From: Chiloscyllium plagiosum | Taxonomy: Eukaryota | Reading direction: 5' to 3' | Length of the DNA: 20,000 bases | Assembly (NCBI RefSeq): GCF_004010195.1 | Contig: NC_057718.1 | Coordinates: 60,561,301 to 60,581,300, forward strand | Shown here: positions 2,986 to 20,000 of the stretch, in pieces | How positions within the stretch are numbered: position 1 is the first letter of the stretch | How the letters are laid out: every line of letters starts with the position of its first letter | The notes under the pieces: model-generated | The model's input: the letters and a program-made list of their open reading frames with translations, nothing else | Told to the model about the DNA's origin: nothing | Databases searched by the model: none | Translations under genes and position numbers: made by a program

Positions 2986-3358
2986 CCTTAAGGCTATCTT
3001 GAATGCCATGAACAATTAATGCCCACATGAAGGCAGTTTAAACCTAATGCTGCAAGGGAATGGTTGGGCATTGTCAAAATCGCTTTACATAGCACCTTCA
3101 CATCTGCAGATGAAGAAAATTGACACTCCATCAATCTGGGTTGAGTGGAAGTCCAATGACTAAACTACTGTGTCCAGGGTAAAATAAATATAACATGGAT
3201 CCAAAGTATTTCTTTATATGGAGTGTTAAAATTTGAGAATGATTAACAAGCTAAACTAATGGAATCAAAGATATTTGAGTCTTAAAAAAGCAGTTTGTTC
3301 TCAGTGGTGAGGGAGAAATTTAATGGACAGGATGACATTTTCTTATTTTCTTTTCCTC

Positions 3359-3501
3359 AGAGCCAGCTCTCAGATTGAACAGAACCCCTGACACTTCTGT
3401 GTATCTTTTTTTCTTTTTTTTCTTTTCTCCCTTCCCTAACACAAAAGTCCAGCTCCCTTAGAGCCAGCTCTCAGAGTGAACAGAATCCCTGACACTCCTG
3501 T
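3359..3501 (+). repeat. Direct duplication of a 42-bp unit (period 101 bp) with pyrimidine tracts; possibly an LTR fragment
   Basis: AGAGCCAGCTCTCAGA(T/G)TGAACAGAA(C/T)CCCTGACACT(T/C)CTGT at 3359-3400 and 3460-3501, 39/42 identical. Confidence 0.85.
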
Positions 3502-4217
3502 TCTTTTTTCTTCCTTCCTTTTGACATTTTCTTATATTCTTGTGTCTGATCTGTAAAACAGAAGAAGAATTAGTACCAAGACTTCAATTAATTTTGGTGT
3601 GCAGCAAAACACCTATTCCAACCCCTGCCCTATGTCCATCCTGGACCTTGCTCAGATTTGGACATGGCAATATGTGTAAGAGACTAGTCGTGCCTTGAAG
3701 TTCATTGAACATATTGTGCACATTTGACTTTGAACATTGTTCTTCCTTGTTAAGCTAACAAGGACCTTTTCAGTAGGTAGAATGGGACAGTGGGCTGAGT
3801 TGTGGATTCATGTTACAGCTTTTGTTCATAATACTGAATGGTTCACTATTACTGCAACTAATCGATGGCTGCCAATATTGGGTACTTAGGAAGTGGTTAA
3901 CCACAATTATTCCCAAATAAAAGACATTTTGAATAGAGTTGATTATTAATTTGTTATGGTTGAACATGAATAATAAATGAAATTAATCTGACTTTATGTA
4001 CATACTGGCAAAAATACAAAAGGCTATTTTGTCAAATATCCAACTGCCATATAGGCAGTTTTCCAAAATATAAACTTGGCTAAGGATCCATGCTTCACTT
4101 ACTGAAATCCTACTTTATCAAGTATGTTTCATTACAATATTCCCTGCTAACCTGACTAAAGTTACATGTAATTTGAACTGAGCAACATTATTAATTAATT
4201 TGGACATCATCACAGTG

Positions 4218-6044: not shown

Positions 6045-7204
6045 ACAGGAGAGGGATACAACCCATTTACAGAAAGATGCTGATAGATTAGATTCCCTAC
6101 AGTATGGAAACAGGCCCTTCGGCCCAACACGTCCACACCAACCCTCTGAAGAGTAACCCACCCAAACCAATTCCCCTAGCCTATGTTTACCCCTGACTAA
6201 TGCACCTAACATTATGGGCAATTTAGCATGGCAAATTCACCTAACCCGCACATCTTTGGATGGTGGGAGGAAACTAGGGCACTGGGAGGAAACCCACACA
6301 GACACGGGGAGAATATACAAACTTCACAGAGGCAGTCACCCAAGATGGGACTCGAACCCGGGTCCTTGGCGCTGTGAGGCAACAGTGCTAGCCACTGAGC
6401 CACCGTGCCACCCAAAGGTTAAGTAACTGGGCAAAAAAGGTTGGCAAATGGAATATAATGTGGGAAAATGTGAAGTTGTTCATTTTGAAAGGGAGAACAA
6501 AAGAACAGAATTTTATTTAAATGGAGAAAAAATGCAGAAAGCAGCAACACAAAGGGACTTAGGTGCACTGGTGCCCAAAGTACAGAAAGCTAGCACACAG
6601 ATGCAGCAGGTAATCAGGAAGGCTAATGAAATTTTAGCCCTTGTTTCAAGAAGGTTGGAGTGTAAGTGTAAATATGTCTTACTGCAACTGTACAAAATGT
6701 GAGTGAGACACATCTGGAGTAATATGAGCAGTTTCTGTCCCCTCATCTGCAGAGAGATATTGTTTCATTAGGGGCAGTTCATAGAAAGTTCACTAGGATG
6801 GTCTCCAGTATAGAGGAATTGTGTTATGATCAAAGGTTAAACAGGTTGGGAACCTACTCACCAAAATTCAAAAGACTGAGAGATGATCTCATTAAAATAC
6901 ATAGGATTCTCAATGGGACTTGACAGGACAACTGCTGAGAGGATGTTTCTCATTTGGTGAGAATTAAGGACTAATTTAAGACTGAAATGAAGAGGAATAT
7001 CTTCTCTCAGAGGTTTGCAAGTCTTTGGAACTCCTTGCCACAGAGAGCTGTGGTAGCAGAGTCCTTGTGTATATTTAAGGCTGAGATAGATTCTTGATCG
7101 GTAGGGGAATCAAGGGTTACACGAAAAAAGTAGGAATATTGACATGAGGAATGTCAGATCAGCCATGTCCTATTGAATGGTGGGGCAGGCTCGAGGGATG
7201 AAAT
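6045..7204 (+). mobile_element. 5'-truncated CR1/HER1-type LINE (RT C-terminus plus 3' UTR), pseudogenised and split by a SINE at 6084-6413
   Basis: ORF 6448-6702 (MEYNVGKCEVVHF...QRDLGALV...QQVIRKANEIL...VLLQLYK) is typical CR1 ORF2. The 3' end reads CAGCCATG..TATTGAATGGTGGGGCAGGCTCGAGGG. Multiple stops and frameshifts are present. Confidence 0.92.
6084..6413 (-). mobile_element. Full-length HE1-like V-SINE (tRNA head, V domain, CR1-derived tail)
   Basis: A box TGGCTCAGTGG (6402-6392), B box GGTTCGAGTCC (6358-6348), V-domain TCTCCCCGTGTCTGTGTGGGTTTCCTCC, and tail GGGCCGAAGGGCCTGTTTCC...(AATCT)n. Confidence 0.93.
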
Positions 7205-8697: not shown

Positions 8698-10834
8698 CTG
8701 TGAAAAGGACACAATATAATTGCATTGGATCAGGAAGGTAGGAGAAAATTGTTTCTCCAGCACAAAATTAAAGTTAAGTCCAAAATCTCCTGACCCATTT
8801 TGTGCATCAACTGGCAGACAAAATTGAACCCAATATTGCAGGGAAAGCTGCTTCAGATTTATTGCAGTTATATGATTAGTAAATTGTTAGTTAATTGAAG
8901 TGCTATGCTTAAATCCACTGACAAATTATGTGTTGTACACAATGATTATTGTAATATTCTAACCTTGTGAATGGATTAAACAACTTTAAAGATAACTTGA
9001 TAATAAATTTGCACAATGCATGTAACTTATTGAATATACAACATTTCCACTTGATTTCTTTTTTTCTAAAATCGTATTAGATTCCATATTCTGGTTTGTA
9101 TTACATACTAAATTTACACTTCAGTGTTTTCTGGCAATGAAGTGAACTAAGATATTTAATCCCTTGTGGTTATTTAATGCAAAGGCTATCTATTCAATGC
9201 ATTATTCTTACATTAGCAATGTTTGAAGATTAGGAATTTAAATTACATAACTTCTCAAGTGAATAATATCAGGTAATATCAAGGCAAAATAACATGGATT
9301 AATGCTAATTTTAGATTATTATTCAGAAATTTTGCTGTAGCTAGGAATAAAACATGAATAAATACAAATTAGAAAGTGTCTCTCTAAGGTCCAACATCAT
9401 GTCCATTAAATGGACAATGCACAGAAGCAGCTCTTAGTTTACATAATGTGATGCATGCATATATGAATGAATATTAATGGGTTTTTTTAGAAAAAGCATT
9501 GAAAAAACTCCTGCGATGACAGATTAAAGCCCTTGTGGTAAAATCTTCTTTCAGACTGGCTGTAACCTCAATTGATAGTAACAATTTTACCTTCAAGATA
9601 ACACCTCCATGGTATCTGCTTCCATCGTTTAAGCTAAATTAATGATTTCATTACAGATTGAAATGGCACTTAAGGCATTGCTGATTTACCTGTAATCCCA
9701 GCAATATTCCAAAAATACCTCTGTGTCTTCTCTGATTAGCCATTCTTCACATCCAATTGATCTGTTGAGGTAATAGTCGGAAACACACCATGCAGTAATT
9801 ACTTACATCTGATTTAAGAAAAGAATATTCAGCACTCCCACTGTTCCACTTTAAGGTCTTCATGGACTATTAACTCATTCCTGTTTATTAATACTCTAAT
9901 GGGCGGATCTTGTCTGGGTTACAATGATTATATGTAATTTTTGTTCTAAAATGAAAGAAATGAATATGAAAATTTGCAAGCATTATGTGACATGGTTAAC
10001 TAGGAAATGGCACCAGTATGTTTTGTTAGGTAGTAGTGTACATAGTGGTATTATTTCCTGTGTACTGCAGTGTGTACGAATATTAAGTTTGAGAATTGTA
10101 CTCTACAATGTTTCCTGCGGGTGTTAAATTCCTTTGAACCCTCTTTGCCTACAGGTACAATCCTCAGACTATTACATTTATCATTTGCTTATTGTTCTAT
10201 TCCGTCTTTTAAACTGTTTTTTAGCTATTGTTTTCTGCTGTGATGTTAAATCAAAAATCAGGCTGTTCAAGAGGTAATGGCAAGAATAACTTTACTCCTA
10301 TACTTAAAGACAGATGTTTTCGCATTTTGAAACAAAATGTGCTCAAGTCTGATGCTCCATTTTTTTTAGGAATTCCCATTGTTACTGTGATTAATGGAAA
10401 ATAGCAGACAATTGTCCTATTGATCATTAAGCAGGAACGACAATAAGCTTAATTTTTGACCACAAATAATTCCAATTTTGGATAATGTGAAAAAAACTGT
10501 TACTGAATGAATATTGCCAGTAATTTAATCCATCCCTCTGTAATCAATTGATTATATGTTGTAAAGATTGAAGCATAGAGTTGACTACAATCAACAGCTC
10601 CCAATTATACTATTCAAATGCCATAATGAGGATATTGTGGTATACTAGCCAATATTGTAGTTAATTTGGCAGGAAATATTATGTATAACCCCAAATGAAA
10701 CAGCATTGTGAACATCTGCATATCAGAAAATGCAAACTGTTGGGATAAATTCTCCACTTTCAGCCATACTATTCCCTTATATTTGTTGAATAACAGTCCA
10801 CACAGTTGTGGAAGCATTGTCATTGTGAACTTAC

Positions 10835-11007
10835 CTGACTGGGGATAAATTTACCTAATGCCTAGACAAACTATGAAATTCACACGGCCAGAATTTCAGG
10901 ACTGGAGGAGTACTAGGTGATGATGGATAAGCCGTAGGGACTTTGAATGTGCTGGCAGAGCTGAGGGATTTGTTTGCTTGGGCTGAGAAGGAGCACACTT
11001 GATATTC
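10835..11007 (-). other. Candidate spliced exon (173 nt), apparently non-coding or stop-containing
   Basis: Acceptor ttgtattttttcctccAG|GAATAT and consensus donor CAG|GTAAGT, with an alternative donor TAG|GTAAAT 20 nt earlier. All three frames contain stops. Confidence 0.4.
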
Positions 11008-11702
11008 CTGGAGGAAAAAATACAAGTTGAAAGTGTAGTTTTTTATTAGCAACTTTCAGCGATCTCTTTCAAAGCTGTTCAAGGCTTAGTTTAATGAGGT
11101 AGGCTTTGTTTGCAGCTCAGGCTCTGCCCATGTATTTGAATTTCACCTTTGAGGTCCCATGCTCAGTGCAAGATGCTGATTCAGGCAGGTAGACCCTTGG
11201 CTCAAACACCTTGAAAGCCAATATAACATCCTGGGTATTTCTGATGCAGTTTATTCATGGCACATTATGAAGAATTTCAGAGGTCTCATGCTGACTTTGC
11301 ACTGGAAACATTGATGGTCATTTCTCCCCCACTAGTTTATTTATTTCAAAGTTTTGAGACATGTCTAAAGGCTTGTTGCGTAGCATTACATTGGAATTGT
11401 TCATTGGTTGTTGTTTTTTCAGTTGTGGTTACAACAATTGCAGCAAATCGTATTGTAATTTGGCCACACCAATTAATGGCTAAGCCATTTAATCCTTATG
11501 CTCCCCAACAAGGTGAGGGTGAGCTGAGTGTCGAGAAGGGTCATTAGGCAGGAAGACACCATCGCCCTGAATTTTCCCAACAATTCCAAAGGCTATGTGC
11601 TCTTTTGCAGTCAGCCCCATGCTATGAAGAACAATTCCCTCCATAAGGCTCGGGAAATCCACTTGCTGTGTCCTCGTCTAGTTCTGCTCAAATATCTACC
11701 AT

Positions 11703-11878
11703 TGTGTCCTTCAAGCAAGCGGGATGATTGTCAGCTATTCGCTTGTACAGCATTTTAGTGATATTCTGACCATAGCCAGATGTATGTGAAGAGCGATACA
11801 TCGAGCTATGGTCAGAATATCACTCCAATGCTGTACAAGAGAATAGCTGACAATCGTCCCGCTTTCTTGAAGGACACA
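11703..11878. repeat. Long inverted repeat / hairpin (83-bp arms, 10-nt loop); probably a palindromic non-autonomous DNA element
   Basis: 11703-11785 versus the reverse complement of 11796-11878 is 76/83 identical with no indels. The loop is GTGAAGAGCG. Confidence 0.97.
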
Positions 11879-12239
11879 TGGTGAGGTGAAGGTGAGGTGA
11901 AGTATTAGGACGTTGGGTCCTAATGGCCATTCTTTGTGAGTAATGTGGATGTGTTGCAATGAGCACTGTATGTAACTGATGGACTGGTGGGTAAATGTCA
12001 TGTATTCACTGAACTTGATGACCAACGTCAGGTTATGAGACCTCTTGTTGCACTGCTTCCAGCTCCTCTGTCAGCAATTAACTTTATAGCTACTTACACC
12101 CAATCCTTTAAGAGTTGTCCTTCATGCCCTCTTGATACAGTGCAGAATCATTACATTTCTATTTCTGTCCACCCCTTCTATTAAGCTCACCTTGATCAAA
12201 TGATTAAGCGTTTTACTCAGAAGCATTGTGAAGTGGCTC

Positions 12240-12920
12240 AGAGACACAGGAAGTGGGTACGCAGTTGCAGCATAAAGTAAGAATGCAAATAGAATCTTGT
12301 CACTTAATTCAAAAGAACTGAGTTATAAAAATAAAAGAAGTTTTGTTACAATTATATAAGGCATTGGTGGGACTATACCTGTAGTGTCCAGTTTGGTCTC
12401 TTTACGTGAAGAAGGATATGGTGACACTGAAGGCAGTTCAAAGGAGGTTCACCAGGTTGATTCCGGATTCACCAGGTTGATTCCAGAGATGAAAGGCCTG
12501 TCATATGACGAGCAGTTGAATAACTCGGGCTTGTACTTGCTGGAGCTCAGAAAATGAGGGAGGATCTAATTGAGGATTATAAAATGCTAAATGGAATTGA
12601 TAAGGTGGATGTTCAACAGAAGTTCTCCCTTGTGGGACAGTCTTGAACAAGAAGTCACAGATGTAGCATGAGAGGAAGTAGGTTCAAAACTGAGATGAGG
12701 AGAAACTACTTCTCTCAGAGGGTTGTGAATCTGCCAAACAATGCAGTGGAGGCAGAATCAATCAACTGATTCAAGAAAGAATTAGATATGGTTCTGATGA
12801 AAAGTGGGATAAAGGGCAAAGGGAGCAGGCAGGAAAGTGGAGTTGAGACCAGAATAAGAGCAGCCATGATCATGTTAAGTGGCAAAGCTAGCTTGAAGGG
12901 CTGAACTGCCTACTCTCACT
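12240..12920 (+). mobile_element. 5'-truncated degenerate CR1 LINE (RT C-terminus plus 3' UTR)
   Basis: Collinear with 6580-7200 and with the reverse complement of 19430-20000 (GCAGTTCAAAGGAGGTTCACCAGGTTGATTCC, TTCTCTCAGAGGGTTGTGAATCT, CAGCCATGATC, GCCTACTC). Confidence 0.88.
12446..12485 (+). repeat. 20-bp tandem duplication inside the CR1 copy
   Basis: TTCACCAGGTTGATTCC at 12448-12464 and 12468-12484. Confidence 0.9.
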
Positions 12921-13115
12921 GGGTGAAATTGGCCATGCTAAATTGCCCATAGTGTTCAAGGTTGTGCAGGGTGGGTGAATTATCCATGGGAAGTGCAAGG
13001 TTACAGGGATAGGGTAGGGGAGGTGGGGGTGCGTGCAATGCTCTTCAGAGTGTCGGTCTGGACTTGATGGGCCGAATGGATTGTTTCTTCACTCTAAAGA
13101 TTCTACGATTCTATA
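12921..13115 (+). mobile_element. 3' half of an HE1-like SINE (different subfamily, GATTCTA-type tail) inserted in the CR1 tail
   Basis: TTGGCCATGCTAAATTGCCCATAGT...GGACTTGATGGGCCGAATGG matches 16273-16390. The CR1 tail resumes as ACTCCAATGTTCCTA at 13116. Confidence 0.82.
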
Positions 13116-15814: not shown

Positions 15815-15940
15815 TGCTGATGAAGAGTTTACGCTCGAAACTTCGACTCTCCTGCTCCTCAGATGGTGCCTGACTGGCTGTGCTTTTCCAGCACCACACG
15901 TTTTGACTCTGATCTCCAGCATCTGCAGTCCTCACTTTCT
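15815..15940 (+). mobile_element. Penelope-like terminal repeat with a minimal hammerhead-like core
   Basis: CTGATGA (15817-15823)-A-GAGT-TTAC-GCTC-GAAA (15837-15840)-CTTC. Same family as 1131-1238. Confidence 0.72.
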
Positions 15941-16139: not shown

Positions 16140-16426
16140 GGGCTGGCACGGTGGCACAGGGACCCGGGTTCAATTCCTGCCTCGGGTTTGCATGTTCTCC
16201 CTGTGTCTGCGTGGGTTTCCTCCAGGTGCTCTGGTTTCCTCCCACAGTCCAAAGATGTGCAGGTTAGGTGAATTGGCCATGTTAAATTGCCCATAGTATT
16301 AGGTTCTTTAGTCAGGGGTAAATGTAGGGGAATGGGTCTGGGTGGATTGCTCTTCGAGGGTCGGTGTGGACTTGTTGGGCCGAAGGGCCTGTTTCCACAT
16401 TATAGGGAAACTAATCTAATCATCTA
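16140..16426 (+). mobile_element. HE1-like V-SINE with two internal deletions
   Basis: Closely similar to the reverse complement of 6084-6413. B box GGTTCAATTCC and V domain are present, with a (CTAAT)n tail. About 29 nt are missing after GTGGCACAG and about 17 nt after CTCGGG. Confidence 0.92.
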
Positions 16427-19429: not shown

Positions 19430-20000
19430 ACCATAAGACCATAAGACCATAAGACATGGGAGTGGAAGTAAGGCCATTCTGCCCATCGAGTCCACTCCGC
19501 CATTTAATCATGGCTGATGGGCATTTCAACTCCACTTACCCGCATTCTCCCCGTAGCCCTTAATTCCTTGTGACATCAAGAATTTATCAATCTCTGCCTT
19601 GAAGACATTTAGCGTCCCGGCCTCCACTGCACTCCATGGCAATGAATTCCACAGGCCCACCACTCTCTGGCTGAAGAAATGGTCTCCGCATTTCTGTTCT
19701 GAATTGGCCCCCTCTAATTTTAAGGCTGTGCCCACAGGTCCTAGTCTCCCCGCCTAACGGAAACAATTTCTTAGCGTCCACCCTTTCCAAGCCATGTATT
19801 ATCTTGTAAGTTTCTATTAGATCTCCCCTTAACCTTCTAAACTCCAATGAGTACAATCCCAGGATCCTCAGCCGTTCCTCGTATGTTAGACCTACCATTC
19901 CAGGGATCATCCGTGTGAATCTCCGCTGGACACGCTCCAGTGCCAGTATGTCCCTCCTGAGGTGTGGGGCCCAAAACTGGACACAGTACTCCAAATGGGG
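19430..20000 (-). mobile_element. Young CR1/HER1-type LINE 3' end (ORF2 C-terminus, 3' UTR, (TCTTATGG)3 tail); continues beyond the window
   Basis: PHLEYCVQFWAPHLRRDILALERVQRRFTRMIPG...RRLRGDLIETYKI...FRTEMRR/HFFSQRVVGLWNSLP...GIKGYGENAGKWS*, with one +1 frameshift near 19681 and the stop at 19528-19526. The octamer tail lies at 19431-19454. Confidence 0.96.

Follow-up and report, generated by a model that had tools for sequence, protein, structure and literature searches.

The window analysed here, a 20,000-nucleotide stretch of Chiloscyllium plagiosum DNA, holds a real, single-locus and lineage-old palindrome of an already known mutation class. We infer that it probably arose as a one-off template-switch inverted duplication shortly before the host species (A) and two close species (B and C) split, and that it has been decaying neutrally since. 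No evidence of mobility or function emerged. The features of the locus are as follows.

11703 to 11785, plus strand: left arm, 83 bp.
11786 to 11795, no strand: spacer (loop), 10 nt.
11796 to 11878, minus strand: right arm, which repeats the left in inverted form, with 76 of 83 positions complementary.
11698 to 11701, plus strand: 4-bp outer extension beyond a 1-nt bulge, paired with 11879 to 11882.
11880 to 11901, plus strand: perfect tandem duplication of 11 bp next to the right end, with no indel here in B or C.

The original prediction that the palindrome is real was borne out, as its arms, loop and extension were all reproduced. The arms pair without gaps, leaving seven mismatches, and the longest perfect run between them in the window is 20 bp. 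The inverted-repeat score was 62 for the palindrome, compared with 9 for the masked window and 9–11 for all ten mononucleotide shuffles. Folding z-scores were −18.9 as RNA and −21.9 as DNA, and none of 200 shuffles was equally stable. A blastn comparison within the 20-kb window found no second copy, in agreement with the earlier claim that the palindrome is unrelated to the other repeats there. GC content was 43.8% in the palindrome and 41.8% and 42.7% in the flanks, as expected of locally copied DNA. The loop had also been read as possibly a decayed GCGAAGC mini-hairpin, a suggestion not supported by the predicted RNA and DNA folds, which close no such loop.

To follow the locus beyond the reference, sequencing runs were sought with positions 10300-12270. 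Twenty-four runs were listed: eight from the host species (word share 0.77–0.92), six from B (0.28–0.33), six from C (0.27) and four by species label. Four of them were compared with positions 10700-12200 at 80% likeness, namely X5, from a sample of A other than the best holder; X9, from B; X15, from C, of which 62% was read; and X21, an RNA run from a poly-A library, of which about 2% was read. In X5, positions 11707-11811 were matched with no other letters and 11833-12200 with one, the 21 positions 11812-11832 being uncovered. In X15, a single 1510-nt contig spanned the whole palindrome with 64 other letters and four gap letters, none of the gaps falling in the palindrome. Divergence from A in 1501 bp came to 50 listed places in B (3.3%) and 67 in C (4.5%). 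The palindrome is present at the same locus in B and C without an indel, and no empty site or joint was found there in either species. Because A, B and C share the locus, the palindrome therefore predates their split; the three species compared all carry both arms, so that none serves as an outgroup lacking the palindrome. Contig depth in X5 was about 18 on the left, about 43 on the right and about 5 over the hairpin (11720-11832), with a poly-A loose end at 11811; this fall probably reflects poor sequencing through the stem.

The state of the arms differs among the three species. In B, the locus was recovered in four pieces (one ending at 11746, 11717-11776, 11747-11834, and one starting at 11835), whose ends mirror one another about the palindrome centre. 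We modelled contig breaks with a 31-mer graph, taking the word length from the description of the contig tool. The window's own sequence gave no break in this model, and only one of five modelled intervals of arm identity reproduced all B break ends:

11717 to 11776, mirrored at 11805 to 11864, no strand: 60-bp interval in which the two arms of B are identical; the host species has four mismatches there.

B keeps at least two mismatches, at both edges of this tract, and its collapsed arm differs from the left arm of the window at two letters. C would have no perfect arm run of 31 or more, since its contig is unbroken across the palindrome. Our comparison of the arms covers 40 of the 96 difference rows, and most of the C arm sequence lies outside these. 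Among the rows listed, both B and C differ from A at 11795 (in the loop), 11803, 11877 and 11879. Position 11803 is paired in B and C and mismatched in A, whereas 11877 and 11879, at the outer end, are paired only in A. One pair of the 4-bp extension is thus specific to the host species; it looks like a product of CpG decay, and the extension probably lies outside the copied tract. The totals imply 22 differences common to B and C, of which 19 are listed, and the leftover letter classes let C share most of the B arm letters.

We consider it the likelier history that the ancestral stem was nearly perfect, with two to three mismatches in 83, and was later damaged in A; alternatively, the mismatches could be old and the arms of B converted. 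Divergence between the arms is about that between the species, at 7 of 83 positions in the host and none over 60 bp in B. At the flank rate, the probability of no new mismatch in the 120 paired bases of B is 0.08–0.11, and their intactness is suggestive, not significant. The pairing gains of A at 11877 and 11879 were also considered as arm conversion and rejected, as one is a CpG transition and the intervening bulge was not copied. If the mismatches were born in the host, about five of eight host-lineage changes are T:A to G:C transversions (11741, 11795, 11803, 11825-11826), against 2 of 15 in the flanks; this excess, drawn partly from rows beyond the 40 of 96, is possibly due to a clustered or GC-biased process. 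The symmetry of the arms had been ascribed to youth, conversion or selection. Youth or conversion agrees with these data; selection is not supported, the palindrome showing no slowing relative to its flanks among the rows listed.

The junctions carry a possible trace of how the palindrome formed. As originally noted, there is no clear target-site duplication (TSD): direct repeats in the flanks do not exceed 5 bp, even when a one-sided offset or tail of up to about 60 nt is allowed, and the three 5-mers common to both flanks in the 67 × 71 positions compared are about what chance would give. The perfect 11-bp duplication at the right junction is a candidate scar of the return switch. The opening six letters of the loop (11786-11791) recur at 11886 and 11897, where they end each 11-bp unit, a match that could be due to chance. 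The duplication is one of seven perfect tandem duplications listed for the 20 kb (unit 8–30), at about five loci, two of which sit at what we take to be retroelement-like ends. Just to its right, 11904-11924 forms an 8-bp inverted repeat with a 5-nt loop; B and C have another letter at 11922, which results in a G-T pair there. We scanned the palindrome and its surroundings with the minimal core motif of the hammerhead ribozyme; five cores with one mismatch were found in or near the palindrome, none of the five being followed by GAAA. An exact-core scan with the same script found a full core at 15817.

The copy number of the palindrome was judged from contigs of public sequencing runs. The three DNA-like runs, compared at 80% likeness, yielded 12 contig pieces, eight of them on the palindrome and all tiling one locus. 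Two extra pieces, of 37 nt (11655-11691) and 44 nt (11533-11576) and about 81% alike, matched the left flank; their recovery indicates that the comparison detects weak short matches. No paralogue of the palindrome was found at 80% likeness in the runs of the three species, as represented by simplified contigs under an undisclosed record filter, an assumed seed length and 62% of the C run. With seeds assumed to be 15–25 nt long, the probability of seeding one paralogue is 0.78–1.0 at 90% identity, 0.37–0.94 at 85%, 0.13–0.76 at 80% and 0.03–0.46 at 75%. This absence makes a recent dispersed family (MITE, Crypton or Penelope stub) with even a handful of copies unlikely, as far as sequence comparison can tell, and it speaks against the original proposal of a mobile fold-back element family. 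The verdict spans recent age only, and an old or nearly extinct family may exist. A pattern scan of metagenome contigs gave one match, of 25 out of 26 letters and without a hairpin, in an intergenic part of a bacterial-type contig (L001); we rejected it as a relative and took it as chance.

Taken together, the single locus, the flank-like composition, the short spacer, the young, near-perfect arms and the direct repeat at the junction favour a template switch. DNA synthesis would have stalled at the locus, and the polymerase would have jumped back by about 10 nt, onto either the nascent or the opposite strand, and copied about 83 nt in reverse. Its return to the original template, with slight re-copying, may have left the small direct duplication at the right junction. 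This would have been a single in-place event, not long before host, B and C separated, inherited by all three and decaying since, with no selection on pairing detected. As a by-product, a long hairpin would form in single-stranded DNA of the locus and in any RNA transcribed through it.

The palindrome has two features of such switches, being a local reverse-complement copy with a short spacer at a single locus and having a copied length in the reported range. The four-point model of short-range switches (Löytynoja and Goldman 2017, PMC5453318; Walker et al. 2021, PMC7954356) likewise yields one local inverted repeat whose arms are separated by a short spacer, and needs no mobile element. According to PMC7954356, direct repeats arise where the return point precedes the first switch, so that one at the return point is possible. 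Copied lengths in great apes have a median of 12 and a maximum of 128 in that study; 83 bp is below this maximum but far above the median, and the present case comes from a shark. Short-range switches are defined by reference to an ancestral sequence, whereas the present palindrome is known from three species that all have both arms. In PMC5453318, no such return-before-switch event was found and inter-strand switches are favoured, and for this reason either strand is allowed for here. Template-switch hairpins and de novo miRNAs, as treated by Monttinen et al. (2023, PMC10710096), resemble the palindrome in their long near-perfect stem, the 10-nt loop and the restriction to one lineage, but their class comprises 30–55 bp, unlike the 83-bp stem here, which is decaying in the host lineage. 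Several points weaken the template-switch reading: all three species compared carry both arms, 83 bp is extreme among known short-range switches, the perfect 60 bp of B also fits conversion between the arms of an older element, and a copy at 75–80% identity would be seeded just 3–76% of the time.

Eulor5, Eulor6 and non-autonomous CryptonA elements have a palindromic shape, and Crypton elements do not require a TSD. A relic of a rare or old mobile element, either a palindromic non-autonomous DNA transposon (Crypton-like or other) or a low-copy Penelope-like fold-back stub, with arms kept alike by occasional conversion and sister copies too rare or too divergent to show up, is a second possible origin, which we regard as unlikely. 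The perfect 60 bp of B fits such conversion, and the tandem repeat at the junction could be a slip of reverse transcriptase, similar to a 13-nt duplication at 1141 beside a Penelope-like end. Animal Cryptons lack terminal repeats (Kojima and Jurka 2011, PMC3212892). Against this origin, no paralogue appeared in the three runs, composition is the same as in the flanks, and neither a hammerhead nor a TSD, even one with a one-sided tail, was found; moreover, young Crypton families are numerous, with over 2,700 copies in medaka according to PMC3212892. Dispersed copies with common ends, the mark of a DNA transposon of MITE or Crypton type, were not detected, none of the 12 contig pieces being an extra one on the palindrome. 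Eulor5 and Eulor6 (Kojima 2018, PMC5753468) and CryptonA (PMC3212892) resemble it in lacking a TSD but are dispersed from fish to mammals or in thousands of copies, whereas here there is one locus with young-looking arms; the comparison is one of descriptions. The text of neither paper contains the stem 'palindrom'. Penelope-like insertions, as presented by Arkhipova et al. (2013, PMC3846280), carry a TSD and a one-sided tail besides their inverted pLTR. Their head-to-head inverted arrangement of about 200 bp recalls the palindrome, which differs from them in having no TSD, no hammerhead core with GAAA and no paralogues at 80% likeness; nor did blastn find any match between it and the Penelope-like pieces of the window. 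In the literature on Crypton and Eulor palindromes and on palindromic transposable elements of sharks, consulted mostly outside subscription papers, nothing on this palindrome was found. LIRBase (PMC8728187) takes arms of over 400 nt and is therefore inapplicable to 83-bp arms.

The window also contains repeats of other kinds. Pieces at 15817-15940 and 1135-1239 are, we assume, Penelope-like ends; a full hammerhead-like core stands at 15817, with related sequence at 1190-1239 next to the 13-nt tandem duplication at 1141. Two copies, 3355-3421 and 3456-3522, are 82% alike, lie 101 bp apart and each adjoin a stretch rich in T, an arrangement suggestive of a short minus-strand retroelement with its 3′ end in tandem. 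A SINE-like repeat occurs in three copies (6084-6418, 12920-13105 and 16140-16418) that are 74–93% alike where matched; two of the copies, separated by about 10 kb, run in opposite directions. Decayed LINE-like fragments, presumably of CR1 type, are found at 6420-7200, 12270-12900 and 19430-20000, the last opening with an 8-bp tandem tail (19430-19455).

Conversion could also have acted on an older palindrome. In that case, the four mismatches absent from B would be ancestral and common to host and C, the arms of B would have been converted, and the locus could be a much older, recurrently self-correcting palindrome that in some lineages of sharks is an incipient gene for a hairpin RNA. The collapsed arm of B, two letters off the left arm of the window, fits conversion that draws on both arms. 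We nevertheless hold this history to be improbable.

A role for the stem as a functional or incipient hairpin RNA (a miRNA or siRNA precursor, or an ADAR substrate), selected in at least some lineages, appears improbable. The fold is very stable, B keeps 60 of 60 pairs, and the 10-nt loop matches the preference of pri-miRNAs quoted in PMC10710096, which also reports that human miRNAs have arisen from template switches. By the count of that paper, however, miRNA annotations exist for just 57 of the 6,054 suitable template-switch hairpins in humans. In the rows listed, the host lineage has 4 changes over the 185 bp of the palindrome and 15 over 1316 flanking bp (p = 0.28), and one host change breaks a pair that B and C keep; these results do not support the earlier proposal of an exapted hairpin RNA under selection. 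If the three remaining shared rows lie in the arms, the counts become 7 in 185 and 15 in 1316 (p = 0.013), a post hoc comparison, and faster change of the palindrome in the host lineage is a lead only. Mismatches between the arms are not biased towards G-U on either strand: one of seven is G-U on the plus strand, one other on the minus strand and five on neither. No compensatory change was seen in the arms among 40 of 96 rows, a comparison of low power among three close species. There is thus no sign of selection on pairing, and the palindrome appears to be decaying neutrally. No Rfam family matched at its gathering score; only one and two plant miRNA models appeared below threshold, and the best of them, MIR447, reached 62 bits against a gathering score of 200, which is a match of shape. 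The roughly 2% of the poly-A run X21 that was read gave no reads, too small a share to bear on expression; the runs listed included no small-RNA library.

No host gene for such an RNA was identified. None of the 186 frames of at least 42 codons in the window matched Pfam at E 0.01, and at E 0.1 weak sub-threshold matches occurred in 3 of 18 frames. The candidate minus-strand exon at 10834-11007 has good-looking splice signals, yet it is not supported: every one of its three frames runs into a stop ahead of the donor near 10834, a 14-nt insertion follows 10909 in B, and no Pfam match was obtained. One reading frame is open through both arms (11682-11789 on the plus strand and 11738-12070 on the minus strand), and three of the seven arm differences are silent in it. 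A 111-codon frame across the palindrome had no match among 1.84 billion proteins, and we rejected a protein-coding reading of the open frame, taking it as chance.

The terminal hairpins of viruses are of a size compatible with the palindrome. Foreign hairpin DNA might have been captured once, for example if the palindromic end of a small linear virus had been ligated into a break. Such a capture would agree with the single copy, the missing TSD and the short direct repeats beside the stem, but it is very improbable: none of the window's 186 frames holds a viral or other Pfam domain, composition equals that of the flanks, and three pattern scans of viral contigs, a weak collection for animal viruses, gave no match. 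A fold-back artefact of sequencing or assembly, to which the drop in depth over the hairpin and the poly-A loose end in X5 might point, is already largely refuted and has next to no credibility, as the arms differ at seven positions, the left arm, the loop and the greater part of the right arm recur in the second host sample, the C contig spans the whole palindrome, and the breakpoints in B require both arms.

As an unusually long example of the template-switch class, the palindrome has little importance alone. Its modest value is comparative. The same locus is perfect over 60 bp in B and broken at four places in the host, although the two species are only about 3% apart, and it therefore offers a way to ask whether palindromes with short loops tend to mutate or to correct themselves in the vertebrate germ line. 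Its weight would grow if small RNAs or arm conversion were demonstrated. If the self-correcting reading were true, single-copy palindromes in the slowly evolving genomes of sharks would let the birth, conversion and decay of hairpins be measured directly.
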